Shown here: positions 45,299 through 63,901 of the stretch, in pieces
Layout of the letters: every line of letters starts with the position of its first letter
How positions within the stretch are numbered: position 1 is the stretch's first letter
DNA from: an uncultured delta proteobacterium
Lineage (GTDB): Bacteria; Myxococcota_A; Polyangia; Polyangiales; Polyangiaceae
Assembly: GCA_963696385.1 (NCBI GenBank)
Contig: CAVOKF010000004.1
Span: forward strand, 1,088,001 to 1,152,000
Direction: 5' to 3'
Length of the DNA: 64,000 nucleotides
Position numbers and translations under genes: made by a program
The notes under the pieces: model-generated
What the model saw: only the letters and a program-made list of their open reading frames with translations
The model's database searches: none
Told to the model about the DNA's origin: nothing

Positions 45299-46139
45299 AC
45301 CAGACTCCAATGACCGGGTGACCGGCCCGGCCTCTGACGAGGCCGTCGTGGTGATCGATCGCCTGCGCCGGCACCTCGGCTACTTGGGCCTCTCCCATAC
45401 GCTCTCCACGCTCGACGACTGGCTCGCGTGGGCCACCCGCGAGCGACCCGGACACACCGCCCTGCTCGAGCACGTCCTGGCCGCTGAGGTCAATCACAAG
45501 TCGGCCGCACGCCTGGACCGGCGTATCCGGGTCAGCGGCCTGGTCGAGCGAAAGACACTCGAGGCCTTCGACTGGGACTTCCAACCCTCGATCGACAAGA
45601 GCCTCGTGCTGGAGCTCGCCCGCCTCGACTTCGTCAGGCGCCACGACGACCTGGTCATCACGGGAAAGAGCGGCACCGGCAAGAGTCACATCCTCAAGGC
45701 TCTCTCCCTGCGCGCCTGCGTGCAGGGCATCTCCCTGCGCTACGCGCGGTGCGTCGACCTGCTCGCCGACCTGCACGCCGGCCTCGCCGACGGCACCTAC
45801 CCCCGACGCCTGAAGGCCTGGGCACGACCCGACCTGCTCGTCATCGACGACGTCGGCCTGGGGCAGGTGCGCCAGCGCGACGACGAGCCCACCGCCGCCC
45901 ATACTCTCTTCAACCTCGTCGATCGCAGGCACGGCAAGCTCTCGACCGCGGTCACCTCCAATATCGATTTGCGCCAGTGGGGACGCTACCTGGGAGACGC
46001 GACCGTCGCCGCCGCCATTCTCGATCGGCTCGCCATGCATGCCATTCGTATCGACATCGACGGACCGAGCTACCGCCAGCACGTCGCTGCCGAGCGTGCC
46101 GGCAAGCCGGTCGCACCCACTCGGGCGACGGCGCCGTGA
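45276..46139 (+). CDS. istB: IS21 ATPase
   Basis: FDWDFQP, GKSGTGKSH, LLVIDDVG, AILDRL. Confidence 0.95.
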   Translation: MAKTKTDKPDSNDRVTGPASDEAVVVIDRLRRHLGYLGLSHTLSTLDDWLAWATRERPGHTALLEHVLAAEVNHKSAARLDRRIRVSGLVERKTLEAFDWDFQPSIDKSLVLELARLDFVRRHDDLVITGKSGTGKSHILKALSLRACVQGISLRYARCVDLLADLHAGLADGTYPRRLKAWARPDLLVIDDVGLGQVRQRDDEPTAAHTLFNLVDRRHGKLSTAVTSNIDLRQWGRYLGDATVAAAILDRLAMHAIRIDIDGPSYRQHVAAERAGKPVAPTRATAP

Positions 46140-46450
46140 GGCGCCCGCGCCGCGTTCCACCCGCTCCGCCTCCGCCCCGCGTCCCGGACCTCGTCGTCGC
46201 GCCGGAGCTCGCCTCCATCATTCTGCTCGAACACGCGCTCGACCTCGCTGCCGACGCGCTCTTGGCCGAGCACCAGACGCTCATCGACGACTTCCATAGG
46301 CCACGCGACCAAGGCCCTGTCGTCTTCCTCGCCCACACGATCTGCCGCAGGGCCGCCACCTTGCGCGAAACGCTCTGGCGCTACCGCCACGCCGTCCGCG
46401 AAGCGGCGATGCCACCCGCGCACGATCCCACCGACGACAACACCTTCTGA
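46136..46450 (+). CDS. Hypothetical protein inside the IS21-like element
   Basis: GTGA overlap with the istB stop. Confidence 0.6.
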   Translation: MRRPRRVPPAPPPPRVPDLVVAPELASIILLEHALDLAADALLAEHQTLIDDFHRPRDQGPVVFLAHTICRRAATLRETLWRYRHAVREAAMPPAHDPTDDNTF

Positions 46451-46685
46451 TAGCCGGACTCCCGCACTGAGCCGCGGGCCCGAGCGCTCGCGAGTCCTAC
46501 CGGCGTCTTGGCGGTTCCCCCCTTCGCCCGGCCGAGCACCTCGGGGTGAGCCACTGGCCCTGACGCGCGCCCTTTCCGATAGCCAGGGGTGGGTCACGAT
46601 CCCGCCGCTGCCGCCACCCCGACCCCGGCGACGGGTGGATCACTTCGGTCGCCAGAAGTGGATCACTCTAAAGGCGCCGCTGAAG

Positions 46686-47059
46686 GTTTCGGTGCGGAAC
46701 TCCGGCAGGCCGTGGAGAATCGCGCCGAGACGCTGCGGCAACTGGGCATCGAGCCCGACGACCCGAGTCGGCTTGCCGCTCTGCGCGAGCGCGAGCGGAG
46801 GGCGGTAGGAGAACAAATGGCGGCGAGCTTGGGGCAGAAATTTGTCGGGCGTATGCCGGAGCGCTTCCGCGGGCGCGTTGAAATCCGCGTGGCGCCCGGC
46901 GGCTTCTCGTACGCCGTCATCTCCGACGGTTCGCGCTTCGGCGTGATGGAGACCACGGCGTCGCTGCGCGCCCTGCGAGGCAAGTCGGTCGTGCTCGCCC
47001 GTGACTCCAAAGGCAGGCTCGTCGTTCGCCCGGATCTCGACCGAGGGCTCGGGCGCTGA
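46686..47059 (+). pseudogene. DUF3363 (VirD2-like relaxase C-terminus) fragment
   Basis: GFGAELRQAV..R..L, LAALRERE, YAVISDGSRF, RGLGR. Confidence 0.65.
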
Positions 47060-47295
47060 CCCTGCGGGCAACGCGTCACCCGAAGCGCGTGGCCTCGATG
47101 TCCTTAGCGCGAAGGACACGGTCGGGACAACCGAGCCGCGGCCGCTGCAGTCGTCGCAACGGGATCCTGGTCGTCCGCTGCCGGTCGACAGCTGGAAACC
47201 ATGGGCCATCTGCGGCCTCATCGCCGCAAACGTGGCGATCTTCGCATTCGAGGTCGCCCAGACGAGCAGCTTTCTCCGGTCGGGCTCGAACGGGG

Positions 47296-47592
47296 TCAAG
47301 CACGCGTTGCCGCCTTCCAGCACGCGGCCAGCCAGGCCCGCTCGGTGGCTCCGAGGACGACGCCGGGAACCGCTCCCTCCACGACGGCATGTGGGCGCTC
47401 CCATCCCGCATCGCCCAGCGACAACGTTCCCGCTTGGCGGGTGCGGTCGTACACGAAGATCGCCTGCTCGCCGTGCTCGTTCTCGAAGTAGCCGAGATAG
47501 TAGTGGTTTGGCTCGGAGTCGTCGATCGCGGGAGGCGCGCCGCACGCGTCGGCGTGATGGTTCGTGACGCGGAAGATCGCCTGCTCACTCAT
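47296..47592 (-). CDS. Hypothetical protein
   Basis: GYFENEHGEQAIFVYD, GDAGW. Confidence 0.7.
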   Translation of the reverse strand: MSEQAIFRVTNHHADACGAPPAIDDSEPNHYYLGYFENEHGEQAIFVYDRTRQAGTLSLGDAGWERPHAVVEGAVPGVVLGATERAWLAACWKAATRA

Positions 47593-47640
47593 GGTCGCAC
47601 CGAGCCTGGTCGGAGCGCAGATGGCATGTCAAGGGCCCGT

Positions 47641-47733
47641 TCAAAGCCTGCCGGTCGACGAAGAGCCGCGGAAGTCGGCGCGGAAACATATCGCGTTTTA
47701 GGGGCGTCCACTGTCGGTTCAGAGTCCCATTTG
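47641..47733 (-). repeat. dif-like repeat R1 (core 47681-47708, spacer AACGCG)
   Basis: Reverse: GACGCCCCTAA AACGCG ATATGTTTCCG...CTTCCGCGGCTCTTCGTCGACCG. Confidence 0.85.
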
Positions 47734-48128
47734 GCGTCCCCGAGGGCGCCAAGCTGGCCGCTCGGCAAGCTGCGGAGGGCCAGCGGAAGCAGTTTGTGGC
47801 GCACCTTGCCGACCGGTTCTCGGATGGCCACCGCTTCACGGACGGTTTGCCGCAAGGGGGCGACGGCGGAGAGGACGAGCCCGGGCCCGCATAGGATGGT
47901 TTGGCGTTGGGTCGACCGCGAGAGGGAGGTCCGCGGTCGTGACTGTCGTGACCGACTCGATGGCGGCAGACGTGCGGTCCCGCATCGGTCTGCGGGAGGC
48001 CAACGGCGACGACCGCTGCGGTGGCCGCGTCACCCCCGGGACAGGACCGGGTCACCCGACGCGGATGGCTTTCGCCGTGAAATCCAGTCGCGTGAGCGTG
48101 GCACGAAAATGGGCGTGTTCGAGCGCCC

Positions 48129-49831
48129 GTGGCTGCTCTCGCGCCCGCCTACGTTCCCCGTCGCCCGACCGAAACGGTCCTGTACGGATTGGTGCGCGAG
48201 AATCTGGAATCGTTTCTCGCGTACGCGCGTGAGAACTACGAGGGAGGGCTACCGCGCTACGTGGAAGCGGAGCTGCGCGCGTACTTGAATTGCGGCGTAT
48301 TGCGTGCGGATTTACGCGCTGCCACTGCGACTCATGCGGCCGCGACTTGCTTGTGGCCTTTAGCTGCAAGGGAAGATCTCTCTGCCCCAGTTGCTGCGGC
48401 AGGCGTATGGCCAACACGGCTGCCCACTTGGTCGACCGAGTCTTGCCCGACGTCCCTGTGCGGCAATACGTTCTGTCGCTCCCGTACGAGCTGCGCAAGC
48501 TTGCGGCGTTAAAGGCCGACGTTCTCACAGCCCTGGGCCGCATCTTCGTCGAGGCCATCTTTGCCCGCTACCGCGCTCGCGCCCAGCGCGAGGGCCTCGA
48601 GGATGCGCAGTGCGGAGCGGTAACCTTTGTTCAACGCTTCGGCAGTCTGAATCTCAACGTGCATTTTCACGTGTTGGTGCTCGATGGCGTCGTGACCCGG
48701 GACCCGGACCGTCGTGTGCTCTTTCATCCGGCGGCCGCTCCGACGCCGGTCGAGTTCGAGGTGCTGGTCGAGCGTGTGATGAACCGCAGCGTGGCGTGGC
48801 TGCGCCGCCACGGCCATGTGCAGGACACGCCGCTCGAAGAGCGCTCGAACGAGCCGCCGGCGCAGACTGCCCTCGACGCGTGCGCGGACATCGCCATGGG
48901 CCGCGGCACAGTCGCAACCTTGTCGAACGACGACGACGGGTCGAAGGACGACGACCGCGAGGCGCGGCCCGACGGGCTCGTCGGCGCGGTCGAGCGAGAC
49001 GGGTTTAATGTGCATGCCGGGGTCCGGATCGAAGCGGGCGACCATCTGGGTCGCGAACGACTGGCGCGTTACGGCGCGCGACCTCCGCTCTCGCTCGAGC
49101 GACTTCGCAGGTTGCCCGGCGGGCGGGTGGCCTATCGACTGAAGTACGTCCGTCGCGGCCGAGGCAAGTACAGAATCATGACTGGCCTGGAGTTCATGGC
49201 CCGCTTGAGCGCGATCATTGCGCCGCCTCGGTATCCGTTGGTGCGCTACAGCGGAGTGCTCGGGCCACACTCGAGCTGGCGACGCGACGTGGTGCCGAAG
49301 CCGCGCAAGACGGCTCCCGCCTGCCACCGCGCGCCCACCCCACCGCTGAGCTCGGCCAAGCCGGTCACCGGCGCAATGACGCACCCGGGCTCCGCGCTTC
49401 CCGGGGCGGCGGCGCCGACAGCGGGAAATGTCGAGAGTGCTCCGGCGCCGGCCGCCAGTTCCTCGGCGAAGGCGGGTCTGTCCGCGCTCCCCATCTTCGC
49501 GCATGGGGGCGAGGTCATCCCGCTCACGCCCAATGTGCTTGCTGTCAGCCACTGGGAACGGCTGCTCGGCGGCGCCATCTACGCGGCCTCGCCGCGCGTG
49601 GACTGGCCCACGCTCTTGAAACGAACGTTTGACGTGGACGTTCTGCAATGTCCGAAGTGCCACGGCCGACTGCGGGTGCTCGCCGTGATCACCGAGCGCG
49701 AGCCGGTGCGCCAGGTCCTCGCCCATCTCGGCCTGCCGACCGAGGCGCCGCCCGTCGCCCGGGCGCGCGACCCGACTGACGACGCGCAAGACCCCGAGCC
49801 GTCGGATCAACTCGAGCTGCAGCTCGCGTGA
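48129..49831 (+). CDS. IS91/ISCR-like HUH (Y2) transposase with Zn-binding domain; frameshift near 48300
   Basis: FSCKGRSLCPSC, RQYVLSLP, QRFGSLNLNVHFHVLVLDG (HUH), ARYGARPP, LVRYSGVL, CPKC. Confidence 0.9.
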
Positions 49832-49897
49832 ACGACCGGCCCCGAGAGCGGCGCCGATGCGGCGCCGCGCGGGCGACGTGCGCTTTGGATATGTTCG

Positions 49898-50005
49898 AAA
49901 TCGGTTCGCCGCTCGGTGACAACGGAAGCCCCTAAGACGCGATATGTTTCCGCGCCCGCTTCCGCGGGCTCTTCGTCGACCGACAGCTTTGGGCTTACTA
50001 CTCGC
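49898..50005 (+). repeat. dif-like repeat R2 (core 49925-49952, spacer GACGCG)
   Basis: AAATCGGTTCGCCG...GAAGCCCCTAA GACGCG ATATGTTTCCG...TACTCGC. Confidence 0.9.
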
Positions 50006-50514
50006 CCGCGTCCGTCGCAGCGTCGGGAATGGTGCTTCCTTCGACGGTCGCGGACGCTGAGCAACCGCACGCGAACACCGCAACAAGCAAGATGCCGTGC
50101 GCTATTCTTCGATCCATCGGAACCACCCTTCCGGTCACGCCCCCCGGCGCTGGCGCGCGCGAGGGTTCTCATCACACTACCCGCGTCTATCCAACTCTTC
50201 GAGCCACTGCGTCGCTGCGGCGACGAAAGCGCGGCCCTCGGCACTCGGCACGATGGATCGCTACGCCGACCGTGCGCCGTTTGTAGCTGGCCCGGTCCCT
50301 GAAGCGCACGAACGCGGTCACGTATTCGTGTGCCTGTCCACCGTTCGGGCCGGCGCCGTCGTAGTAGCGACACGGGGTGGGGCTTCGTCCGCCAGGAAAA
50401 AGGCCGGCCCGGGGGGGTCATCGCCTGCCCTTGCCAATCCGAAGCTCGCTTTCGAGCGTCACGAAGGCCATCGCGGAGCGACGCGCCCCGTTCACGCCGT
50501 AAACAATCTCAACT

Positions 50515-50901
50515 TTAGGGGGCGAGCGGCTCTGGCCACCATTCGCGGAAATCGTGGGCTGAAAGCTTCTCTCGGGCACCGGCGCGGGCGAGAAGCTGAA
50601 GCTTTTCCCACAGGACCAGCGGGCATCGAATGGGGGGTGTCTCGCGGCACTCGAGCTCGTCGACACGTCGCACGTGCAGTGCGCTTTGATAAAAGTACGT
50701 CTTCTTGCTCAACCGGAGCGGCTTGTTGGCTCGCCGTTCCGGGTCCACCACCTCGTGCGGAATATCCCGGGGGCCGGTTCCGGTCCCCGAAAGGACGAGC
50801 GCTCGGGTTCCGTCGGCCGACAACCTGATCACGATGGCCGGATGCGGCTCTCCGCCAGAGTTTGGGACGATCCAAACCTTGTCGGCAATGTGCAGGGTCA
50901 T
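50515..50901 (-). CDS. Putative PemK/MazF-like toxin
   Basis: DKVWI...HPAIVI...LVLSGTGT...LRLSKKTYF resembles the PemK pattern. Confidence 0.5.
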   Translation of the reverse strand: MTLHIADKVWIVPNSGGEPHPAIVIRLSADGTRALVLSGTGTGPRDIPHEVVDPERRANKPLRLSKKTYFYQSALHVRRVDELECRETPPIRCPLVLWEKLQLLARAGAREKLSAHDFREWWPEPLAP

Positions 50902-51699
50902 CTACTGGATCGTTGCCGTCTCAGTGATGTACGCTTCAAAGAGAGCCTCGCCTTCGTTGTGATCGCTGATGATCTGCTCTTGTCGGAAACGCTGATCGGA
51001 AGGTACGAGGTCTTCAGGTACGCCAGCGTCGCCGTACATCATTGCGAGCATGCGGACCACCGAACGCTCGCCCTTGACCCAGCCTCGCGCGACGGCTTCA
51101 GTAAGCCAACGCGGCGGCGATGGGCGATCCGAAAGGACGAGGTCCACGAGTGCCGCCAGGCACGCGGTACCCTGCGCGTGCGCCAGAACGGCGTTGAGCA
51201 AGGGAATTGGAAGAGCGTAAAGATCGAAGCCCTCCCAGGCAGCCCCGCTAGCCTTAGGGTCAGGAGCCGAACGAGCATGCCGTCCGAACAAGCCGGAGAT
51301 AACCGCGCCGATTCTGAGCCCCGCGAGCAGATCCGTGACGAGCCCGCTCTCCTCCGGCACCTTCGCGCACACGGCTCGCATGAAAGTCACCGGATCGGCA
51401 ATCCTGGCAAAGCGACCTGCGTACAAGGTCGCCGAGACCGTCCGTGCGGACTGGGAGGCTTGCAGGTCGTTCGCCTGGGCATCGAGAATGTCGAGGAAAT
51501 CGGCCTCGTCTGCCGCGGTCCAGACAAGCGAGCCGATGACGCGTGCCGTTCTGCGCGCTTCGTCGATTGACGAAGGTGACTTGCTCCTCCGAAGATGCGC
51601 CTTCTGAACCCGGCGTTCATGGCGGTTCACGACTGATAGCCCGAGCAGCCACTTCTTTTCGGCCGCGTAGTCGTCAGATAGCTGCGCCAGCGCGTTCAT
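50902..51699 (-). CDS. Hypothetical 265-aa protein directly upstream of the PemK-like gene
   Basis: Stop codon directly abuts the downstream ATG. Confidence 0.7.
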   Translation of the reverse strand: MNALAQLSDDYAAEKKWLLGLSVVNRHERRVQKAHLRRSKSPSSIDEARRTARVIGSLVWTAADEADFLDILDAQANDLQASQSARTVSATLYAGRFARIADPVTFMRAVCAKVPEESGLVTDLLAGLRIGAVISGLFGRHARSAPDPKASGAAWEGFDLYALPIPLLNAVLAHAQGTACLAALVDLVLSDRPSPPRWLTEAVARGWVKGERSVVRMLAMMYGDAGVPEDLVPSDQRFRQEQIISDHNEGEALFEAYITETATIQ

Positions 51700-51751
51700 C
51701 GGTCGTGGAATTCTAGCACGCGGAATTGGCCTGCGTTTTCGCTGTCGCACG

Positions 51752-51853
51752 GCGAGTACTAAGCCCAAAGTGCGTCGGTCGACGAAGAGCCCGCGGAGGC
51801 GGGCGCGGAAACATATCGCATCTTAGGGGCTTCCGTTGTCACCGAGCGGCGAA
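51752..51853 (-). repeat. dif-like repeat R3 (core 51806-51833, spacer GATGCG)
   Basis: Near-identical inverted copy of R2. Confidence 0.9.
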
Positions 51854-52054
51854 AGATTAGATGAACCGGTGGCGGCGCGTCCTGGACCGCCAGGCACGCC
51901 GCGCGGCACGGGTGCCGCAGCCTCGAGATCGATCGCGGGGCGTCTCGAGAGCAGCCCCCGTGCCGGTCGTCGGTCATCGAAAATAGCGACCGACCTCCCG
52001 CTGGATTATCCATCCGACACCCCGGCGTGCTCAAAGGCACAAAGCGAAGTGGGG

Positions 52055-52164
52055 GCGAGTAGGCGGCGCAAAGCTTGTCGGCCGACGAAGAGACGCGGAA
52101 ACCGCCGCGGTCACATAAAAGGCCTTTGGGGCGCTCGTTGTCATTGAAAGCGCCGTCCCAATTG
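52055..52164 (-). repeat. Diverged dif-like repeat R4 (core 52108-52135, spacer GGCCTT)
   Basis: Reverse: AGCGCCCCAAA GGCCTT TTATGTGACCG...TTTCCGCGTCTCTTCGTCGGCCGAC...TACTCGCC. Confidence 0.8.
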
Positions 52165-52193
52165 CGCACCGCCGTCCCGCTTCACGGTGCGCT

Positions 52194-52304
52194 CAAATCG
52201 GTTCGCCGATTCAGCGATAACGAACGCCCCTAAGACGCGATATGTTTCCGCTGGGTCTTCCGCTGCTCTTCGTTGACCGATACCCTTTCGACTGGCTACT
52301 CGCC
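52194..52304 (+). repeat. dif-like repeat R5 (core 52223-52250, spacer GACGCG)
   Basis: CAAATCGGTTCGCCG...AACGCCCCTAA GACGCG ATATGTTTCCG...GGCTACTCGCC. Confidence 0.9.
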
Positions 52305-52478
52305 AATTGAGCGTTCGCCGATTCGAGTCGGAGGTTGGCTGGTCCCCATCGATGATGATCTGCTCCGAGGTGCCCGCTCGCCTCTCCGGCGCATCGCGAA
52401 CTTCCTGCGCGCGCGCCGTAACCGTCCGGCCGGGCCCGCACTTGATTTAGGGGCAGAAAGCGCGGTGCGATCGGGGGC

Positions 52479-52799
52479 ATGGGACGCGAGCGTCGGTCGC
52501 GAGTCTGGTGGTCAAGCCGAGTGGCGCGTTGGCGGCGCAGCGGGCTTACGGCGCGGCAATTCGCAGAGAGCGAAGGGCTTTCGGTGTTCTCGCTTCGGTG
52601 GTGGTCGAGCCAGTTGGCTCGTGATAACCGTGCGGAGCACGGTGCGTCGGCGATCGAGCCGATCGAGATCACCGTCGAGGGGCGTCAGGCCGGCCGCGAA
52701 CTGGTCGAAGTCGTGGTCGGCGCGGCGACGATCCGCTGCGAGCGGGGGACGGACGTCGGATACATTGCGGCGCTGGTTCGTGCGATCGCGGGTGCATGA
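52479..52799 (+). CDS. tnpA: IS66 TnpA
   Basis: WRRSGLTARQFAESEGLS. Confidence 0.85.
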   Translation: MGRERRSRVWWSSRVARWRRSGLTARQFAESEGLSVFSLRWWSSQLARDNRAEHGASAIEPIEITVEGRQAGRELVEVVVGAATIRCERGTDVGYIAALVRAIAGA

Positions 52800-53161
52800 C
52801 GGTGTTCGGTTTCTCGCCTCACGTTCGCGTGTACCTCGCGTCGCAGCCGGTCGACATGCGTGCAGGCCACGACAGTCTGTTCGCGATCGTGAAGAGCTGG
52901 GACCTGAATCCGTTCAGCGGGGACCTGTTTGCGTTCGTTGGGAAACGACGAGACCGGGTGAAGATTTTGGTGTGGCACCGCGGGGGATTTTTATTGGTCT
53001 ACAAGCGGTTGGAAAGAAATCGATTTCGGATCCCTGCGATCCAGCCGGGAACGCGGACGGCGATGCTCGATGCGACGCAGCTGGCGATGTTGCTCGATGG
53101 CATCGACGTCCAACACGTTCAACGCCCCGCGCTGTGGCAGCCTCCGGGTCTGGCGCGCTGA
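52796..53161 (+). CDS. tnpB: IS66 TnpB
   Basis: PVDMR.G.D.L, FVGKRRDRVKIL, YKRLE. Confidence 0.95.
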   Translation: MTVFGFSPHVRVYLASQPVDMRAGHDSLFAIVKSWDLNPFSGDLFAFVGKRRDRVKILVWHRGGFLLVYKRLERNRFRIPAIQPGTRTAMLDATQLAMLLDGIDVQHVQRPALWQPPGLAR

Positions 53162-53268
53162 GCCCCGTCGCGGCCCTGTGTGTCCATTGGACACTTTGTC
53201 GCTGAAATCGTCGTCGGCCCCCACGCTAAGCCTTTTAATCTGCGCGGCGATGGTGCACGAAAAGGATC

Positions 53269-54873
53269 GTGGTTGATGCGCGAGACGTCCGCATCGCGAA
53301 GCTTGTGGAGCTGCGCAAGCGCGCCGAAGAGCGTGAGCGACAACTGGGCGAGATCGTCGCGCAGCAGCAGACGCTGATCGCTGCGCAGCAGCAACTCATC
53401 GCCGAGCTGCAGCGTCGACTGTCCGAGCAAGATGCGCAGCAGAAGGCGCGCGCCGAAGAGATGAAGGCCGAGATCGACCGGCTGGAGCGGCAACTGTTGG
53501 GCCCGAAGACCGAGCGGACCCACGTTCCGCCGATCGACGCCGAGCTTCGCAACACCGAACCGATGACCGACGAAGAGCGCGCGCGCCGTCGCGAAGAGAT
53601 TGCACGCAAGCGACGCGAACGCGCACTCGCGAAGAACGCCGCGATGGCCGTCGAGCAGGTCGAGTACCCGGTACCCGAATCGATGAAGCCGTGCGCTCAT
53701 TGTGGCGGCGTGCATGCGCGAGCTCTCGAGCCCGAGCAGAGCACGACGTACGAGTACAAGCCGGGTCACTTCATCCGTCGTGTGCACAAGCGGCAGAAGC
53801 TCGCATGCAGCTGCGGCCAGTCCATCGTGACGGCGCCGCCGCCTCCGAAGCTCGTCGTCGGTGGACAGTACGGCTTCGGGTTCGCCGCATTCCTCATCGT
53901 GGAGAAGTGCGCCGACTCGATTCCCATTCATCGCATTGAGAAACGATTCGGCCGACTTGGGATCCCGATCTCGCGCAGCACGATGAACGATCTCGTTTAC
54001 AAGGCTGCCGAGATTGTTCGACCGCTCGTCGCTCGACTGCAGACGCGAATCGCGGCTCTCGAAGTCGTGCTCGCCGACGAGACCTCGATGCGCTTGCAGG
54101 ACCGTCCCAAGCGCGGCTTTGTCTGGGTGTTTCACGGTCACGATGAAGTCAGCGGCGGCAAGCTTGTTCTGTATGCCTTCGCCGTCGATCGAAGCGGCGA
54201 CACGCCGGCGAAGATCCTGGGTGGCACTCGCGGCACTCTCGTGGTGGACGGATACACGGGGTACAACCAGGTGACCGACCCGCTCGGACGCGCGCGCGGC
54301 GGATGCTGGAGCCACATGCGCAGAAAGCTCTTCGAGGCGCGCTCCACCCGTGCGGCCGAGGACATCGACCCCGCGCTCGGGATCATCCGCGAGATCTTTC
54401 GTGTCGAACACGACGCGACCGAGCAGAAGATCGTCCGCACTCCGGCCCATCTCGAGCTGCGAAATGCGCGTAGCGCTCCGCTGGTCGAGCAATTCTTTCA
54501 GTGGGCCGAACACAAGAAGGTCGAGGTCCTTCCGAAGGGCCCGCTCGGCGAGGCGCTCGGTTACGCGATTAACCAACGCGCTCGACTCGAGCTTTTCTTG
54601 TCGGATCCGCGTATTCCGATGCACAACAACGGCTCAGAGTCCCGCTTACGCGTTATTGCTCTGGCTCGCCATACGTACCTTTTCTTCGGACATCCACTCG
54701 CGGGCAAAAACTTCGCGGGGCTCTACTCGCTCGTCGGCTCCTGCATCGCCAACGAAGTCGAGCCGACGGAGTATCTCACCGACGTACTTGCCCGAGTCCG
54801 CGACGCAACGACCGACGAGCAGCTCGACGCGCTGCTACCCGATCGGTGGGCGCCACACGGTCCAGCGCCCTGA
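53269..54873 (+). CDS. tnpC: IS66 transposase TnpC
   Basis: ADETS, VVDGY.GY, CWSHMRRK, HNNGSE. Confidence 0.95.
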   Translation: MVDARDVRIAKLVELRKRAEERERQLGEIVAQQQTLIAAQQQLIAELQRRLSEQDAQQKARAEEMKAEIDRLERQLLGPKTERTHVPPIDAELRNTEPMTDEERARRREEIARKRRERALAKNAAMAVEQVEYPVPESMKPCAHCGGVHARALEPEQSTTYEYKPGHFIRRVHKRQKLACSCGQSIVTAPPPPKLVVGGQYGFGFAAFLIVEKCADSIPIHRIEKRFGRLGIPISRSTMNDLVYKAAEIVRPLVARLQTRIAALEVVLADETSMRLQDRPKRGFVWVFHGHDEVSGGKLVLYAFAVDRSGDTPAKILGGTRGTLVVDGYTGYNQVTDPLGRARGGCWSHMRRKLFEARSTRAAEDIDPALGIIREIFRVEHDATEQKIVRTPAHLELRNARSAPLVEQFFQWAEHKKVEVLPKGPLGEALGYAINQRARLELFLSDPRIPMHNNGSESRLRVIALARHTYLFFGHPLAGKNFAGLYSLVGSCIANEVEPTEYLTDVLARVRDATTDEQLDALLPDRWAPHGPAP

Positions 54874-55325
54874 ACCACTGGGGCGCAGCGCAACTCCCGC
54901 AATCCCCGAACGCGTCGCGCGTCGTCACGTCGATGCAGAGTGTCGCGCGAGTCCGCGACGCGACCCCAGCACGACGTGCCGCTATCCATACGAGCGCAGC
55001 GCCTCGCCTCTGCCCCCCTGAACCACTGGCCTGAAGTCGCCAAGCATGGTCGCGCTCTGTTGCGGCCGCGGCAACGACGTCAACGCGACGATGCTCTTGG
55101 CGTGCTCGCCAACAATCGCGACGAGTACTGGGACAAGAAGCTCGCCGCCGATACTTGGCAGGGGCCTCATCGCGGGAAAGGCCCGCCCCCTGAACCATTC
55201 TTGGACTCAGGTCAACAGCGGGGCGCGCCGGACGCTTACCGCGCGCCGGAACGAGCCATGGCCTCGTCGCTCAGATTTCCGCGCTCCCTGCGAGCGACAT
55301 CGCCGGCTCAATCTCTATTCGATGC

Positions 55326-56540
55326 TTATTCGATGCTTGCTCGGGCGATCAGCTCGTCCGGGCGTTCGTTTAGGAGCTCCGAGCAGGTACCGCCGATGGC
55401 GTACGACGCGATTTCTTGTTTGAGAACACGCACGAGTGACCCGTCGAGCTCGGATCGAAATATAGCAAAAAGTCGTTCTGCAGGGCCCTCCGGATCCTTC
55501 GTGGCGAACACTACCCGTCGCAGGGATATGTTGTTTCTCAAGCCGGCAGCGATCAGGTACTTGAAGTGCCCGTCAGAGGCTGGAATTGAGAAACCGAGGA
55601 TACCGATCCGAGTCGCATCGGTGAGGGCTTTCACCGCGTCGTCCCACACGAAGGCCAATGCGCCGTCGAAGTTTTTCTGCCAGGTCGGCGGAACAATCAA
55701 AGGGACGTATCGGGCCCCCAAAAGGTCTCGGTACGTCTCGTAATCCTTCAGGAGCCTCGTGTCCGGGATCTGGCTTCGCGGATTATCGGATCCGCTCGGG
55801 CGCGCCCAATTTATCGAGCCGTGCAGTTTGAGCAGTTTGACGCAGCGCTCGTGCGAGGGCCGCTTCTCGTCGTTCGCATCGATCGTACCATAGTTCCAGT
55901 CGATACCGAGCGCGGTCAGCGCGGTTTCGATGACCAAGTCGTAGTTGAACGTAATGATCGTAATGCGGCGGCGCGGGTCGTCGGCCCAGACGCGGCCGGT
56001 CAAGAAGGCGTAGGTCAACTCGCTCAGGGAACGGTCGATGATAACGATCGGTTGCTGGGGCGCGTTGATCGGCATGGGCCCGCGCATAGTCGCCGCGATT
56101 GTCTGCGTCGGTTGTTCGTCTGCCACATGCTGCCAGGACGGGGGTGCCGTCCAGCTTGGACCACTGTTTCGAGGAACACCCACTTTTCCGTGTGCAGCGC
56201 GAAACCCGGCCGAATAGTCGAGAGTCGACGCGATGGCGATCTTGACGTCGTCCATCAGGCCATTGCTTTCGCTGGCGGCTGCGAGACTGAACAGTTCCTC
56301 GATGTTCTCCGGATCCACTTGGACGCGGTAGGCGGCTGACGCGATCTCGTGCCGAAACGCCAAGACGTTCTGTATCGCCCTCTGCTCGCGCTCGCGACCG
56401 TCTTGGTCGTCAAGCCAGTCAAGTGCGTCTCGCATGCGATTGAGAAAGTTCGCGACGACCGGCATGCCTGCGTCGACCGAGGCGCCCGCGCCAAGGATGT
56501 AGACGACATTGTGATTGTAAAGGTCAGGTCCCATGCCCAT
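55326..56540 (-). CDS. SIR2-like (SIR2_2) domain protein, putative defence NADase
   Basis: ILGAGAS...P, ITFNYD, KLHGSINW, IVPPT, ILGFS. Confidence 0.85.
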   Translation of the reverse strand: MGMGPDLYNHNVVYILGAGASVDAGMPVVANFLNRMRDALDWLDDQDGREREQRAIQNVLAFRHEIASAAYRVQVDPENIEELFSLAAASESNGLMDDVKIAIASTLDYSAGFRAAHGKVGVPRNSGPSWTAPPSWQHVADEQPTQTIAATMRGPMPINAPQQPIVIIDRSLSELTYAFLTGRVWADDPRRRITIITFNYDLVIETALTALGIDWNYGTIDANDEKRPSHERCVKLLKLHGSINWARPSGSDNPRSQIPDTRLLKDYETYRDLLGARYVPLIVPPTWQKNFDGALAFVWDDAVKALTDATRIGILGFSIPASDGHFKYLIAAGLRNNISLRRVVFATKDPEGPAERLFAIFRSELDGSLVRVLKQEIASYAIGGTCSELLNERPDELIARASIE

Positions 56541-56807
56541 TCGGATCGCGAGCGTAACTGGAGCCGCCGAATCTTGCTGCCGCCGGCGAGTGCCCGGGGC
56601 CAAGGGTCGCCAGCGATCCGGCGAAGGCGATACGCGGATCAGCCGGTGGCGATACGTTCTGTACGGCGCGCTGTCGGGTCACGCAACCGAGAATCGTGGG
56701 GCAAAGCCGAGTCCTCCAGAACCAGTGCCCCAGTGCCCTGTAGTGGGCGGAGCGAACGCCCGGGTCATCTCGGTCATCTCGGAACCGCTGCCCGAGTCAG
56801 GCGAGCT

Positions 56808-56850
56808 CAAATCGGCCGCTCGGTGACAACGGAAGCCCCTAAGACGCGAT
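56808..56850 (+). repeat. dif-like repeat R6, left half (cut by IS4)
   Basis: CAAATCGGCCGCTCGGTGACAACGGAAGCCCCTAAGACGCGAT, then the IS end. Confidence 0.85.
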
Positions 56851-58326
56851 CATAAGTTGGTACTTAGGGATTCGGGATGGCGCTCGCTACCACACAAGTG
56901 CGAGTGGCTCGAGGCCCATAGCGAGACGTCCGCGCTTTCGATCGCGAGCAGGATGAGCGCGGCGCGCGTTGGAATCGAGGAACTTGAGCGCTTCGGCGAG
57001 GGCACGACGCAATTGGCGCGGTGAGTCGAGGAGGCCGCGGAGGACATCGTCGAAGTAATGCTTGCCGGACGCGGCGGCTCGCTGGGTCGAAAGCTCCACC
57101 CCCAGCGACGCTTCCGCGAAGTGTGCGAGCGAGCGTTTCAGAAGGGCTGCGAGCAGGCTCGCCCATATCATCGCTTTCGCGATAGCGGCCTTGCCCGTAT
57201 CGAAGGCATGAAGGTTGGCGTGAGATTTGAACTCTTTGAACAGGAGTTCCACCTGCCAGCGGAGGCGATACAAGCCGGCCACGTCGGCGGCGGAGAAGCG
57301 CTTGCGAGCGAGGTTGCTGTGCAGGTACACGAACGTCTTCGCGTTGCGCTTGCCGCGCTTGTAGATCGCCACAATTCGCCCGCGATACACGAATGAATTC
57401 GCCTGCCATTCGATGTCGAGATCGACCGTGTGGGCCGGAAGCAGGTCCCAGTTCAACTTCTGGCCGAGCAACTTGGGGATGGATTTGCCGGCGCTGTCGA
57501 AAGCGGCCCGAATGGTGGGTCGAATGTTTTTGGTTCCGCGGACGATGAAGGCGCCGCCCGCTTGGTCGACGTCGAAAAAGAATTTTCGCTCCTCGTACCC
57601 TCGGTCGGCCAGAAAGAGCCGCTCGCGAAGACTCGCGGCCTCGGGACGGTAGGTTCGCTCGGTCTCCTTGTCGGCCGTCAGGGCGACGATGCGCACATCG
57701 TCTTGGAGCAGACTCATCGTGACGTGCAGTTCCACGGCGGCAGGCGAGATTTTTGTAAAGCGGCCCGGCCATGTGCCTTTCAAGTCGTCCTTGAGCGCGA
57801 ACGACGTCCCGTCGTGAATGACGATGTCCCGAAAGGTCGACAGTTTGGGGGACACGGCGTGCAGAACCGGCTGGCTCATCTTCTGTACCGTCGCTTCCAG
57901 CAGCATCCGAAACATCTCTGGAAAGGACGCTTGCGCGAGCCGGTTGTGAAAGGGCTTATATCGCAGCGAAAGGCCCGCGAATTTCCGGAACGTCCGCAGA
58001 ATATCGGCCAACCACTTGGCGTGGCCCGACCCGAGCGTCGACAGCACCGCCACGACCATCGCCAGCGGCATCACCTTGCGCACTCGCCGTAGCCAGCCGC
58101 TACGTCTCGCGATCGCGGTCACCTCCTCCTCGCCGAGTACTTCCGTAAGCCGTTTCGCATACACGCCGACTCCGGCGCGTGTACTGTTTGATCCGTGCAT
58201 CGGGGGTCTCCTTTCGCGTTGTCTCACAACAGCGTCTAGAGAATCCCCGATGCCTTTGACTATCCAATTCGTGCACTATGCACGTAAGTGATCGAGATCA
58301 CTCGGGAAATAAAGATCCTACCTATG
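56851..58326 (-). mobile_element. IS4-family element (transposase 56887..58200)
   Basis: IHDGTSF, LADRGY, YRLRWQVELLFKEFK (YREK); ends CATAAGTTGG / CCTACCTATG. Confidence 0.95.
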
Positions 58327-58398
58327 AACGGGTTATATGTGACCGCCGCGGTTTCCGCGGCTCTTCGTTGATCGATACGCTTTCGACCGGCTACTCGC
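58327..58398 (+). repeat. dif-like repeat, right half (spacer CGGGTT)
   Basis: AA CGGGTT ATATGTGACCG...TTTCCGCGGCTCTTCGTTGA...GGCTACTCGC. Confidence 0.85.
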
Positions 58399-58580
58399 TC
58401 CTTGCCTCCCCGCCATCGCGAGGACCGTCATCGACGCCACAACATCGCGACGACCGTCGCATATTCCGGCGTGGCTCAGGCTGTCGTTCCAATGTAGCAT
58501 CGCGACGTGAGGGGACCCTTGTCAATCGCCGTCCAGACCGCGACAGCCGCGGCGCGCAATTGGCGCTGGTAGCTACCGGC

Positions 58581-59261
58581 ATGGCGCTCATCTCCTGCCC
58601 GGACTGCGGCCGCTCGGTATCGGATGCTGCCGTCGCGTGCGGCGGCTGCGGGCTTCCGATTGCCGGCCATTTCGTTCATCCGCAGTCGCGGCCCCGCTGG
58701 TACCACACCACTGTTGTCGTCGGGCTGGCGCTGTTGCTTGTCTATCCAATCGGTCTGCTTCTGCTCTGGACCGATCGAAGGACGAAGGGATCCACGAAGG
58801 CGTTGGCCACCGTGCTGTTCGGTTTGCTGTTCATGGCGGTCATGCGCGGCGCATCGTCTGACCACGTCGCTTCGTCGACGAGCGACGGTTCGCGGGGACA
58901 ATCGATCCTTCACGCTATGGTGAACCGGGACCAAGCACCCACCGCCAACACCTACGCCGTGCCGCTTTCCACGCTGCTCGGCGAGTATTCGGATAACGAA
59001 GTGCGCGCTGACGTTCGCTATAAACAACATTGGATTCGGACCTCGGGGATCGTCGGCGAGGTCAAAAAGGACATCACGGACAGTCCCTTTGTGACCATTG
59101 GTAATGGCAGCGAATTTCAGATCCCGGTTGTCCAGTGCTTGCTTGCGGATGATCAAGTCGCCCGGGCCGCAAGCTTTTCGAAAGGAGATCGGGTCAAGAT
59201 CGTCGGGCGAGTCGACGGCCTCATGATGAACGTAATCATGAGGGATTGTCGGTTCGAGTAA
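58581..59261 (+). CDS. Zinc-ribbon + TM + OB-fold (tRNA_anti-like) protein
   Basis: MALISCPDCG.SVSD.A.AC..CG.P; EYSDNEVRAD..YK; KGDRVKIVG. Confidence 0.8.
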   Translation: MALISCPDCGRSVSDAAVACGGCGLPIAGHFVHPQSRPRWYHTTVVVGLALLLVYPIGLLLLWTDRRTKGSTKALATVLFGLLFMAVMRGASSDHVASSTSDGSRGQSILHAMVNRDQAPTANTYAVPLSTLLGEYSDNEVRADVRYKQHWIRTSGIVGEVKKDITDSPFVTIGNGSEFQIPVVQCLLADDQVARAASFSKGDRVKIVGRVDGLMMNVIMRDCRFE

Positions 59262-59306
59262 CGGGAGGAAGGTGTCACCGGCGGCGACTCACGCTTGCCG
59301 ACCTGC

Positions 59307-59416
59307 CAAATCGGTTCGCCGATTCAGCGATAACGAACGCCCCTAAGACGCGATATGTTTCCGCGCCCGCTTCCGCGGCTCTTCGTCGACCGACGCACTT
59401 TGGGCTTACTACTCGC
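59307..59416 (+). repeat. dif-like repeat R7 (core 59336-59363, spacer GACGCG)
   Basis: Left half matches R5, right half matches R2/R3. Confidence 0.9.
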
Positions 59417-59418
59417 TC

Positions 59419-59991
59419 GTAAAGCGGCCCGGCCATGTGCGTTTCAAGTCGTCCTTGAGCGCGAACGACGTCCCGTCGTGAATGACGATGTCCCGAAAGG
59501 TCGACAGTTTGGGGGACACGGCGTGAAGAACCGGCTGGCTCATCTTCTGTACCGTCGCTTCCAGCAGCATCCGAAACATCTCTGGAAAGGACGTCTTCGC
59601 GAGCCGGTTGTGAAAGGGCTTATATCGCAGCGAAATGCCCGCGAATCTCCGGAACGTCCGCAGAATATCGGCCAACCACTTGGCCTGGCCCGACCCGAGC
59701 GTGGACAGCACCGCCACGACCATCGCCAGCGGCATCACCTTGCGCACGCGCCGTAGCCAGCCGCTACGTCTCGCGATCGCGGTCACCTGCTCCTCGCCGA
59801 GTACTTCCGTAAGCCGTTTCGCATACACGCCGACTTCGGCGCGTGTACCGTTCGATCCGTGCATCGGGGTCTCCTTTCGCGTTGTCCCACAACACCGCGT
59901 CTAGAGAATCCCCGATGCCTTTGACTATCCAATTCGTGCACTATGCACGTAAGTGATCGACATCACTCGAGAAATAAAGATCCTACCTATG
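59419..59991 (-). mobile_element. Truncated second IS4 copy
   Basis: Close homolog of 57756-58326, cut after GRFT. Confidence 0.9.
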
Positions 59992-60040
59992 ATAACCCGT
60001 TAGGGGCTTCCGCCGTCGCTGTAATGGCGAACCGATTTGG
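59992..60040 (-). repeat. dif-like repeat R8, left half (spacer CGGGTT), cut by IS4
   Basis: Reverse: CCAAATCGGTTCGCC...GAAGCCCCTAA CGGGTT AT, then the IS end. Confidence 0.85.
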
Positions 60041-60550
60041 TATCCACTGCACGAATCGGCGAGTAGCCGGTCGTTGAGCAGTTCGCCAATTTGGTCCGCC
60101 TTCAGCTCGAACCTCCCGTTGGCGGTTGGCCCATAAGAAGTCCTATGTGAAGACGGCTCCCTTGCCAGCTCGCGCCCGCTTGCACGGCCTATCCGCCCGA
60201 GTCGTCGCCGAAAGAAGGGCAGTCCACGAGCCGCTGGCGAGAGTTCTTAGGCCGCTCGCCGCTCAAGCAGGGCCTGCTGGCAGCAAGGCCCTTGCGCCAG
60301 CTCCACGGTGCGCATCTCTTGGTCGACGACTTGCAGGGACATCAGGGGTCGAAGTGTGCCTGCACGCAAGCGTCTGCCGGGAAACACCGCGCTAATGGTG
60401 AGAAGCCCAACAGAATCAAGTAGGTCGTAGAGGAAGCACCTCAAAAACATCCCCATTTAGCGTTTCGCGAAATACCTGGCTGCGCTCTTGCATCTGCAAA
60501 ACCGAGCGGGGCGGTGGATACCGATCAGTGACCGCAAGGGAGTGACTCCG

Positions 60551-61774
60551 ATGACCGAAAGACTGGCTCAGTTCGGCGACTACCAGAACGAGATCTACAA
60601 CGCGGGATTGCACGGAACATTGCCGGGCTTCCCGATGGTCTATGCGGAGCTGGAAGCGAGAGGGACGAGAGCCCTGTCTCCTTCCGTGCTCTCCTTCGTC
60701 GCGGGAGGCGCTGGCGACGAACTGACCCAACGCAACAACGTCGACGCGTTCCAACGGTGGGGTCTGATTCCGCGCATGCTCGTCGGGGCGACCAAGCGAG
60801 ATCTCTCCGTGCAGTTGTTCGGAATGACGTTCCCGTCCCCACTTCTCATGGCTCCGATTGGCGTCATCGGAGTGTGCGCACAAGACGGGCACGGCGATCT
60901 GGCCACAGCCGAGGCGGCGGCGCGCAGCGGCGTTCCGATGATCGCGTCAACGCTGTCCGTCGATCCGATGGAGGACGTGGCCCGCCGCTTCGGGGGGACG
61001 CCAGGTTTCTTTCAGCTCTACACCCCTACCGACCGGGACCTGGCCGCGAGCTTCGTCCATCGGGCGGAAGCCGCGGGCTTCAAAGGGATTGTCGTCACTC
61101 TCGATACGTGGATCACCGGTTGGCGTCCGCGCGATCTGGCCGGCAGCAATTTCCCTCAACTGCGAGGACACTGCTTGGCCAACTACACCTCCGATCCCGT
61201 ATTCAAGGCGCGCCTTGGTAAGGACCCCCTAAGCGACATGTCTGCGGCTGTGAAGCTTTGGACAGAGGTATTCGGCAATCCACTGACCTGGGAGGACCTG
61301 CCCTGGCTACGCTCGCTCACGAAGCTGCCGTTGCTGCTCAAGGGCATCTGTCATCCCGACGATGTCCGCCGCGCGAAGGGCGGAGGGGTGGACGGAATCT
61401 ACTGTTCCAATCATGGTGGCCGACAGGCCAACGGCGGGCTGGCTACACTCGACTGCCTACCGGATCTCGTGGAGGCGGCAGATGGTATGCCCGTGCTCTT
61501 CGACTCCGGCGTCCGTTCCGGCGCCGACGTGGTTAAGGCCCTCGCCCTGGGCGCCACCGCGGTCGGCATCGGCCGGCCGTATGCTTACGGTCTCGCGATT
61601 GGCGGCGTCGACGGCATCGTTCACGTCTTGCGTACCGTCCTCGCGGAGGCCGACCTAATGATGGCCGTTGATGGCTATCGTAGTCGGGCGGACCTGACGC
61701 CAGCGTGTCTGCGCCTCATTTGCAACTGCTTCGCAACTGTGTCGACAATGACCAGAGGGCGCGAGCATGAATAG
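60551..61774 (+). CDS. FMN-dependent alpha-hydroxy acid oxidase / lactate 2-monooxygenase
   Basis: APIG, VVTLD, LKGI, SNHGGRQ, DSGVRSG. Confidence 0.95.
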
Positions 61775-62237
61775 CGTGTGGGTTCTCGTTTGCGATGCCG
61801 CAAAGGCAAGGGTCTTCGATGTGCGCGAAGGAGGGGCGTCGTGGCGTCTCGTGTCGGAGACTTTCCACGCTGGCTCGCGTAGCAAAGCCGCCGCCCTCGC
61901 TGGGGACCGGTCGGGGAGCCGCTCGTCTCAGGGTCGATCCGTGCACCACAACGCGCTCGCGCGCGCGTTATCGCCGAAGGAGGTCCAAAAGGAACACCTC
62001 GCCCACGAGCTTGGAAGGACGCTCGACCAGGCGGTACGCTCGTCCGAGTTCGAGCACTGGGTGCTCGTCGCGCCGCCGCACTTCGTCGGATTGATCGAGA
62101 GCGAGCTGAGCCCCGCGCTGAAGAAGAGCCTTCTGACGACGGTGGGCGAGGACTTGAACCACCTCGATCAGCGCGCCCTGGAAGAAACGCTCCGCGAGAG
62201 CGTTCGCGTTCCCCTCGACCAGCAGGACGGGGCCTAG
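61767..62237 (+). CDS. Host attachment protein family
   Basis: [22 protein letters not shown]. Confidence 0.85.
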
Positions 62238-62239
62238 CG

Positions 62240-63360: not shown

Positions 63361-63901
63361 CGACGGACTGCCGCTCGATCGGTGGGCGAATTTTTACGTC
63401 ATCACGTCGACGGCAGCTGCAACCCTCGTCGGGCTGCTCTTCGTGGTCATCACCCTAGCAGCCGAACGCGCGCCTGCCAGTCAGGCAGGTAAGATCCGTC
63501 TGTACCTCACTCCTACCGTCGTCTACTTGGCGTCGGTGCTGTACTTCGCCGCTGCGCTGGCGTTCCCCACTCAGTCGCGGCTATCGACAGCCATCTGCTG
63601 TTGCCTCGGGGGTGCGGCCGGCGTCGTCTACCCGCTCTCCATGCTCTTCCACAGCGGCGGTGCCAGTCGATTCTACGAGCGCGCAGACGTGTTCTACTAC
63701 GTTGTGTCGCCCGCAGCCGCATACGCTCTGGTCATCGTAGGCGGCGCGATGCTGATGCATACACCGCAGCGCGGCCTGACTGTCGTGGCCGTCGGCGTGT
63801 TCGCGTTCATCGTGATCGGCCTACGCAATGCGTGGGCGATCGTCGTGGATCTCGTGGCCCGGCGCCATTTCGGGAAGGAGGCCGACGATCGCGAGCGTTA
63901 G
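63353..63901 (+). CDS. Hypothetical membrane protein
   Basis: WANFYVITSTAAATLVGLLFV...GLRNAWAIV. Confidence 0.8.
   Translation: MGDDGLPLDRWANFYVITSTAAATLVGLLFVVITLAAERAPASQAGKIRLYLTPTVVYLASVLYFAAALAFPTQSRLSTAICCCLGGAAGVVYPLSMLFHSGGASRFYERADVFYYVVSPAAAYALVIVGGAMLMHTPQRGLTVVAVGVFAFIVIGLRNAWAIVVDLVARRHFGKEADDRER

Follow-up and report, generated by a model that had tools for sequence, protein, structure and literature searches.

A repeat of about 110 bp punctuates an island of accessory DNA in a 64,000-nucleotide (nt) stretch of a Polyangiaceae-like genome (C4:1088001-1152000), and the same unit was identified as the right end of an IS91/ISCR-family rolling-circle insertion sequence (IS) lying in that island. 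The whole stretch is called the window here, position numbers are those of the window, G000 denotes the genome carrying it and C1-C8 are its contigs. The repeat belongs to a large genomic family, it coincides with the end of the IS, its core resembles the chromosomal recombination site dif, exchanges between copies are localised to that core, and its outer ends form junctions with unrelated DNA. We propose, with a probability of roughly 55%, that the repeats are IS91-derived miniature elements dispersing a dif mimic, which the host XerC/D recombinases would then recombine; we infer, by analogy, which enzyme is at work where and how transposition is polarised. An earlier sequence-only reading of the window had described an array of Xer-type sites bounding gene cassettes. 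Its dif-like core was recovered, as were a XerC/XerD-like pair in the genome and exchanges at the core, while self-contained cassettes moved solely by core recombination were not.

The window contains six full or near-full copies (R1, R2, R3, R4, R5 and R8), three halves (R6, R7 and R9) and one 37-bp remnant (Table 1). The sequence-only reading had listed at least eight copies in both orientations, and all of them exist, together with the spacers it gave (GACGCG, AACGCG, GATGCG, GGCCTT and CGGGTT) and its remnant near 60058, which proved to be an internally deleted piece. Alignment of the copies revealed sharp ends (YCAAATCGG ... CTACTCGC) with unrelated flanking sequences, and no target duplication was found around the copies in the flank alignment. 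Directly before AAATCGG, 66 of 70 unique flanks have C, and 68 have T or C one base further out. Of 81 unique flanks at the right (R) end, 54 begin with C and 20 with T, and no 4-mer stands out clearly. A profile built from the six aligned window copies gave 98 matches in G000 (6.94 Mb, 8 contigs), 49 of them full-length. These matches are clustered, with 55 of 90 same-contig neighbour gaps at 5 kb or less against an expected mean spacing of about 70 kb; both the abundance and the clustering of the repeat are far beyond chance. The clusters sit in IS-rich, defence and toxin-antitoxin islands on C2, C4, C6, C7 and C5. Among neighbouring copies within 5 kb, 34 share an orientation and 21 are opposed, with no alternation. 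A weak partial profile match (positions 3-45, 18.6 bits) was also observed at 29754-29796, far from the array.

The IS in question is present in the window as a full copy, in which a body is followed by repeat R2. Its transposase carries the Pfam domains Y2_Tnp (83.5 bits, cut-off 20.9) and, at the N-terminus, the zinc-binding Zn_Tnp_IS91 (44.6 bits, cut-off 26.3), and its best NCBIfam matches are the ISCR clade Ia and IS91 transposases, both under their cut-offs. The element has two unlike ends, without terminal inverted repeats and without target duplication. Its left end, as read from the sequence, is a GC-rich stem-loop (GGCGTCCCCGAGGGCGCC) common to the window and C6 copies. On the right, an end motif “a” (...GCGCTTTGGATATGTTCG) precedes the module and is followed by CAAA or GAAA; the family's target tetranucleotide, next to the ori end, is of the CTTG/GTTC type. 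In G000 the junction consists of GCGCTTTGGATNTGTTC directly followed by (G)AAATCGG. The sequence-only reading had treated this HUH transposase gene as the cargo of one cassette. The gene was confirmed as a Y2, IS91-type transposase, and the cargo role was not, the adjoining repeat being the terminal module of the IS itself.

All four Y2_Tnp loci of G000 have a repeat copy about 65 bp downstream in the same orientation, with homology extending up to its R end. The right boundary is common to the four IS copies, their left boundaries vary, and their flanks are unrelated and unduplicated. These IS-adjacent repeats are different sequence variants, with a common left half and differences after the core. 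Of the 31 genus genomes, 21 have relatives of the transposase. The closest one, in G025 (92% amino acid identity), has the repeat at the same place (1/1), and four more distant IS91-like lineages (G011, G012, G006 and G008; 60-67% amino acid identity) carry a 108-109-bp module after a G-N-T-C motif. The modules of these distant lineages end in CTAC.C.C, and their middle differs, showing little or no dif likeness. Furthermore, in four of the six IS lineages, motif “a” and the module R end (“b”) both carry ...GC.CTTTGG... Solo copies of the distant lineages' own modules were also encountered, one in G011 and three in G012. Judged by sequence, a rolling-circle IS of the IS91/ISCR family has the 108-bp repeat as its right-end module. 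In G000, solo copies of the repeat far outnumber copies of the IS.

The likeness of the repeat core to dif was assessed against a predicted host site. A loose pattern ([AT]AA-N6-[AT]TATG) gave 106 matches in G000, 49 of them outside the repeats, and among these 49 only C3:50568-50595 shares the extended arms (AAGGCCCCTAA-GGAACA-TTATGTGAACT). A search by ATAA-N6-TTAT with palindromic arms returned only an unrelated palindrome. At two or fewer mismatches, the C3 site is present in 7 of the 31 same-genus genomes (including the unpublished G010) and occurs once per genome in six of these seven. It forms a conserved 28-bp island amid otherwise unconserved DNA, and at least one flank is homologous to that of G000 in five of six relatives, so the dif locus looks alike. 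The site also lies near the GC-skew maximum of C3. As the lone extended-arm match, in single copy, at a conserved locus and in keeping with the skew, C3:50568-50595 is taken as the predicted chromosomal dif of the genus, with the consensus ARGGC..CTAA-GRRR.A-TTATGTGA(A/C)CT.

Compared with this predicted dif, the repeat cores agree at 8-10 of 11 positions in the left arm and at 6-9 of 11 in the right arm, and their spacers differ from that of dif. Right arms of the ATATGTTTCCG type agree at 6/11 and those of the TATGTGACCG type at 8-9/11, the right arm of R4 being the closest. The repeat core is best described as an 11-6-11 imitation of the predicted dif of the host. The comparison with host dif and xerC/xerD that the sequence-only reading had suggested also yielded the putative enzymes: G000 encodes one XerC-like and one XerD-like tyrosine recombinase of about 306-311 amino acids, with best NCBIfam matches to XerC (309.9 bits, cut-off 335) and XerD (314 bits, cut-off 329.6), and the XerD-like protein passes the subfamily NF001399. 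In line with that reading, the window has no tyrosine recombinase gene; none of the 32 tyrosine recombinase matches in G000 falls inside it. Gene maps of lone repeat copies near tyrosine-recombinase genes (C3:483 kb, C4:81 kb and C8:14 kb) displayed no consistent pairing. No copy is located near the predicted dif at C3:50.5 kb, and the sole C3 copy lies at 483 kb.

A different repeat was observed in G020, a genome without the 110-bp family. Its two copies (L038 and L039) have the dif-like core TCGACCCCGAA-GCGCCT-TTATGTGAACT, constitute the two further dif-pattern matches of that genome and have flanks identical for about 30 nt on both sides. This repeat may be a second dif-mimicking element.

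Exchange between copies was recognised in metagenome contig L087, whose site combines the left half of C2:59325(+) with the right half of C2:69058(-). Its flanks are 99.7-100% identical to G000, and the switch occurs inside the 14-bp CGCCCCAAAGGGAT, comprising left arm and spacer. Such a hybrid site is what an inversion of 9.6 kb between two inverted copies would give, and it would be one case of the inversion at the core that the sequence-only reading had proposed to look for. In addition, a two-parent scan was run on 82 distinct copies from G000, G003 and metagenome loci, requiring a perfect explanation and at least four informative differences on each side. Three recombinants were found, with breakpoints at consensus positions 33-43, 33-44 and 45-48, in left arm and spacer. 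Every cleanly localisable exchange between copies thus falls in the left arm and spacer.

The outer ends of the repeat are a further place where sequences change. An RCC1-repeat gene is cut 47 codons from its start by the R end of R2 (50005/6), and in G003 the same segment runs into an intact gene of 387 amino acids (RCC1_2, 39 bits, cut-off 22). The longer form of this gene occurs in contigs of three of four peat runs and the G000 form in the fourth; contigs alone were available for these runs, and their joints at repeats rest on at most 36 nt per side, reflecting repeat-induced contig ends. Other junctions include C4:38314, where the R end adjoins a paralogue, truncated at its 5' end, of a C7 gene, and C7:1425692, where the copy links a pair of segments, each with 99.4-99.5% identity to a repeat-free locus, the two loci being non-adjacent; the reciprocal products of the latter junction were searched for and not found. 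An IS66 copy is cut at a repeat L (left) end on C5 (C5:731604 among the junction cases), and a metagenome copy meets C4:72638 at its R end, a position without a repeat in G000. Additionally, identical copies with an identical right flank were found with two or three different left flanks. The outer ends of the repeat are therefore junctions that cut genes and ISs. Breakpoints outside the core, which the sequence-only reading had named as a sign against itself, were encountered repeatedly, in the cut RCC1 gene and in other genes and ISs truncated at R and L ends.

By analogy with IS91 and IS801, the Y2 HUH transposase would begin to displace a strand at the right end, taken as ori-type (...CTTTGG...CTACTCGC), and would stop 108 nt further on, where the transferred strand has a stem-loop and TTTG (the L end, which reads CAAATCGG in the top strand). 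In this scheme the L-end stem-loop AATCGG-TTCG-CCGATT with TTTG would act as a ter-type end and the R end as an ori-type end. The released unit would be a complete mini-IS with both end types, able to insert without target duplication and to be moved again in trans. Transposition of such a mini-IS would account for the sharp outer ends, the approximately 100 copies, their clustering and their patchy occurrence. The bases before AAATCGG may belong to the element itself, or a GNTC-type target on the opposite strand may account for them. Strand exchange at the core, between copies with matching spacers, would be the work of host XerC/XerD or, with lower likelihood, of another tyrosine recombinase, and would invert or delete the DNA between the copies. 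The element would thus disperse recombination sites, and the host enzyme would then shuffle the flanking DNA. More broadly, a rolling-circle transposon may have built an imitation of host dif into its end module and spread that module in about 100 copies, with XerC/D, the chromosome-dimer resolvase of the cell, inverting, deleting and reassorting accessory DNA across several islands as a consequence; we advance this only tentatively, at somewhat less than even odds. If true, it would describe a two-step “portable recombination site” system and a possible birth route of dif-module-like arrays.

Several observations weigh against the proposal of miniature elements recombined by XerC/D. No pair of filled and empty sites was found among 49 full-length copies from G000 and 44 from metagenomes, whose flanks are mostly island DNA without orthologues, and we therefore infer the mobility of the solo unit. 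Genes at many junctions are truncated and not merely split, so extra rearrangements or adjacent deletions are needed. The cases of core exchange are few, and two of the three recombinants name each other as parents and may represent a single event. A four-gamete linkage scan of 49 copies revealed mosaicism that extends over the right half, without any core hotspot, and homologous exchange or conversion therefore also acts. As for the host side, GC skew is weak in G000 and the C3 maximum is broad (40-100 kb), the right arm agreeing with dif at just 6/11 is the commonest one, and the XerC and XerD scores fall just under the NCBIfam equivalog cut-offs. Some G003 contigs may derive from a G000-like strain and so may not be independent of G000.

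These points leave room for a different account, in which the repeat is an independent site family that the IS91-like and other ISs prefer as a target and that some other enzyme spreads, for example one of the 32 tyrosine recombinases. It would explain why at least four elements insert at fixed repeat positions (the IS4-family element in the core, another at about position 22, and the 194-bp and IS91-like elements at the L end), why the IS-adjacent copies in G000 belong to different variants and why solo copies are so numerous relative to the IS. We nevertheless consider it unlikely, since six IS lineages retain both end motifs and a module length of 108-109 bp, the middle of the module diverging along with the IS, and since the module R end repeats the IS's own end motif. 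The IS-adjacent variants agree in the left half and differ past the core, as core exchange would give, and no recombinase gene is consistently near the copies. Closer to the sequence-only reading, the units could be pure Xer (pdif-like) sites with accessory arms, the intervening cassettes being moved solely by core recombination with no role for a transposase. The dif-like core and the mapping of exchanges to it agree with this idea, as do island L012, where single genes or toxin-antitoxin pairs lie between copies, and the variation of cassette content among populations, with the SIR2 and Zn-ribbon segments at about zero depth in four peat runs. It fails to account for breakpoints at outer ends that cut genes and ISs, for identical copies that share a right flank and differ in the left one, for neighbour orientations of 34 same versus 21 opposite, or for the unit forming the IS91-like right end in 4/4 (G000) and 1/1 (G025) copies; moreover, the repeat occurs in just 4 of the 31 genus genomes, and the predicted dif in 7. 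The claim that modules are bounded at the sites likewise holds for the cassette-like look of L012 and not for the Zn-ribbon module, which is not co-inherited with its inner half-site. Taken together, this makes the purely Xer-driven array quite improbable.

Most improbable of all is a repeat that is structured or regulatory (akin to REP/REPIN or to integron attC, or else a gene for a small RNA) and whose resemblance to dif is without function. Numerous copies, placement between genes and head-to-head pairs (R4/R5, for example) are what it would lead one to expect, and the HUH transposase gene of the window is flanked by inverted copies, like genes of REP-associated tyrosine transposases (RAYTs) by repetitive extragenic palindromic (REP) sequences. 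The exchanges localise to the core, however, and the transposase belongs to the Y2 IS91 type, present in multiple copies, and not to the single-copy Y1 RAYTs. An Rfam scan of 44000-64000 gave no match at E<=1, and single-strand folds of three copies, on both strands, were no better than shuffles (z -1.2 to +0.5). The unit is accordingly neither a structured RNA, one of the caveats of the sequence-only reading having been non-coding RNAs, nor a hairpin at the DNA level. Identity with integron attC sites was rejected because the three copies lack the single-strand fold of an imperfect palindrome, and identity with REP/REPIN sequences and their RAYT was rejected on the missing hairpin signal and on the Y2 IS91-type transposase at four loci in place of a single-copy Y1 (IS200-like) one.

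Table 1. Repeat copies and other features of the island, in window coordinates.
Feature	Position	Strand	Description
R1	47636-47733	-	Repeat copy; L part shortened, R end degenerate; L end abuts left end of IS91-like element (47734)
IS91/ISCR-family rolling-circle IS	47734-50005	+	Full copy; body 47734-49897 and module R2 49898-50005
ORF (open reading frame) upstream of Y2 transposase	ends 48288	+	No Pfam family match
Y2 HUH transposase	48290-49831	+	Pfam Y2_Tnp and Zn_Tnp_IS91
R2	49898-50005	+	108-bp right-end module of IS91-like IS, the repeat itself; core GAAGCCCCTAA-GACGCG-ATATGTTTCCG
Unique segment R2-R3	50006-51749	-	Truncated RCC1-repeat gene (47 first codons, start 50146); two more ORFs
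ORFs in R2-R3 segment	50515-50901, 50902-51768		No family match
R3	51750-51860	-	Repeat copy; first ~10 nt at L end replaced by end of another repeated element
194-bp segment	51861-52054	.	6 in genome at >=98% identity, always abutting repeat L end
R4	52053-52164	-	Repeat copy; core CGCCCCAAA-GGCCTT-TTATGTGACCG
R5	52194-52306	+	Repeat copy; head-to-head with R4, 29-bp spacer
IS66-family element	52413-55239	+	orf1 52479-52799, TnpB 52796-53161, transposase 53269-54873
SIR2_2-domain gene	55326-56603	-	Pfam; unique in G000; candidate defence gene
R6	56808-56850	+	Left half copy; ends ...CCCCTAAGACGCGAT at IS4 insertion point
IS4-family IS	56851-58326	-	1,476 bp, transposase 56887-58227; inserted in repeat core
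R7	58327-58400	+	Right half, site different from that of R6; AACGGGTTAT-ATGTGACCG...; placed at 58330-58400(+) by repeat matching
Zn-ribbon/tRNA_anti-like OB-fold gene	58445-59288	+	Pfam
R8	59306-59419	+	Full repeat copy
IS4-family partial second copy	59419-59992	-	Right ~575 bp; joins R8 R end to R9 core
R9	59993-60040	-	Left half copy
Remnant	60058-60094	-	37 bp; R-end motif joined to L-end motif, core deleted

According to Pfam, the DNA between the window copies is mostly mobile (IS91-family, IS66 and IS4-family). What had been read as a PemK-like pair is orf1 and TnpB of the IS66-family element, with the IS66 transposase adjoining; this element has three near-identical full copies in G000, including the one in the window. 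The SIR2 gene and the Zn-ribbon/OB gene reported between the sites are both present, with Pfam matches to SIR2_2, a Zn-ribbon and a tRNA_anti-like OB fold. The Zn-ribbon gene has a second copy at C6:46694-47535 (94.5% identity), also beside repeat copies. Homology between the two stops 9-18 bp before the downstream repeat copy, those two repeat copies are different variants, and a test for co-inheritance of the Zn-ribbon module with its half-sites did not reveal any. Depth over the SIR2_2 and Zn-ribbon segments is about zero in the four peat-run contig sets, which hold the R2-R3 segment and the DNA right of R9; the stretches without cover (55518-56519 and 58524-59024) represent segments simply unassembled in those runs. 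Both genes look strain-specific.

The R7 site, interpreted earlier as a left/right hybrid from crossover in the core, is split by the IS4-family element, whose flanks derive from two different sites (AAGACGCGAT and AACGGGTTAT, a mismatch, with 10-bp duplications elsewhere). The partner flank was found at R9, beside the partial IS4 copy, and the apparent R6/R7 hybrid is explained by IS-IS recombination and not by core crossover. In G003 and in one metagenome contig, the counterpart of R9 is uninterrupted and full-length at the same place. The IS4-family element is very young, with 20 copies or pieces in G000 that are 94-99.5% identical; half of them (10/20) abut a repeat core, and the 10-bp duplication covers AA-N6-AT of that core, the target resembling TTA-N8-TAG. 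A duplication-T-duplication core scar, which looks like an excision footprint, was seen in four repeat copies (C4:46442, C2:103534, C2:74009 and C7:1383862). Another repeated element (GTCGGGTAGGCCGGGGAGG...) interrupts copies at position ~22, at 52143 in the window and at the G003 contig ends L061, L066, L067 and L068. Several G000 repeat matches begin at profile position 22. The 194-bp segment is probably the end of another IS. Repeat copies attract other ISs at the core (IS4), at position ~22 and at the L end (the 194-bp end).

The 146 representative neighbour proteins examined from the other islands include many IS families, group II intron reverse transcriptases and ordinary enzymes, along with the defence-type proteins DruA, Shedu SduA_C, SIR2_2 and Uma2 and the toxin-antitoxin proteins ParE, Phd/PIN and BrnT. 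Island L012 (C4:1015001-1032000) displays single genes or toxin-antitoxin pairs between successive copies. Just upstream of the array, an IS21 (istA/istB) and a DUF3363 fragment of a relaxase-associated kind were observed at 43724-46139 and 46589-47059, and a longer Relaxase/DUF3363 gene is present in island L011.

The dif-bearing repeat has a narrow distribution. With a sequence-only covariance model, it was detected in 4 of the 31 genus genomes (84 copies in G000, 41 in G003, 4 in G025 and 1 weak copy in G006) and had no match in 150 other sampled genomes of the order. A blastn search of 60 relatives with a single copy had missed the diverged G025 copies, which the covariance model recovered. 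In a pattern scan of 185,579 species genomes, multiple matches occurred in one named metagenome-assembled genome only, a “Polyangiaceae bacterium”, and two single matches look like chance. Between G000 and G003, identity is 99-100% in island segments and in window 59992-63906 and about 92% in the dif flanks. This near-identity reflects either recent transfer or the binning of contigs from a G000-like strain into G003.

Searches of the literature on IS91 with XerD/dif, on myxobacterial dif-like sites or Xer, and on Polyangiaceae repeats returned no description of such an element, with subscription journals outside their scope. The combination of a rolling-circle IS end with a host-dif mimic is present in none of the closest known systems. 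The origin of the extra dif-like sites flanking genes is an open question for the dif modules of Acinetobacter, and here a vehicle is visible, the end of a rolling-circle IS. If confirmed, the proposal would mean that a transposon is able to spread target sites of a housekeeping recombinase through a genome, would account for the plastic nature of islands of defence, toxin-antitoxin and IS DNA in a large myxobacterial genome from soil or peat, and would offer a testable three-part system of Y2 transposase, 108-bp unit and XerC/D. The repeats also account for the broken and wrongly joined contigs of assemblies from these organisms.

The comparison with known systems follows what the cited accounts report of ends, sites and products. 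The layout of IS91 is terIS, orf, tnpA, oriIS; a tetranucleotide adjoins the ori end, and the active form is a bottom-strand circle (PMC13181058). In IS801 of Pseudomonas syringae, right-end miniatures of 229, 360 and 679 nt transpose after premature termination at a tetranucleotide, in 26% of events (PMC3189936). Like these miniatures, the repeat is a short unit of the right (ori) end, lacks a target duplication and coexists with full-length copies, and its far side is bounded by a short left-end or target-like motif (CAAA here; GAAC, CAAG and similar in IS801) (PMC3189936). Unlike them, it has a fixed length of 108-109 bp across six IS lineages and a far-end stem-loop of its own, numbers about 100 copies against the handful described for IS801 fragments, and contains a dif-like core; its mobility is presumed.

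The pdif sites and dif modules of Acinetobacter resemble the island in that many 11-6-11 sites similar to host dif punctuate accessory genes, including toxin-antitoxin pairs, and in that recombination at the sites reshuffles DNA (PMC13141974, PMC12907356). ISs target the sites in both systems, the IS1202 family doing so at pdif (PMC10132070). The present unit differs from those reported there in measuring 108 bp instead of 28 bp, with sharp transposon-like ends, non-alternating orientation and additional breakpoints at the outer ends, and its sites lie in the chromosome of a Polyangiaceae-like genome and constitute the end of an IS91-family element. A dif module of the Acinetobacter type was rejected as an identity on the absence of alternation and on shared or truncated segment boundaries at the outer ends and not at the core.

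Integrative mobile elements that exploit Xer (IMEXs), such as CTXphi, VGJphi and TLCphi, carry a dif imitation and integrate at chromosomal dif using host XerC/D. The repeat is similar in being a mobile element that bears a dif imitation and would rely on host XerC/D in place of a recombinase of its own. It differs from IMEXs, as these are described, in that its copies are not at the predicted dif, its spacers differ from that of dif and its carrier is a fragment of a rolling-circle IS; an IMEX identity was rejected on the absence of a copy near the predicted dif at C3:50.5 kb. Finally, the recombinase-encoding IS91-family elements offer a parallel in which rolling-circle transposition is paired with tyrosine-recombinase chemistry (10.1101/542381). 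In contrast to those elements as characterised there, the IS of the window has no recombinase gene and appears to carry a site for the enzyme of its host.

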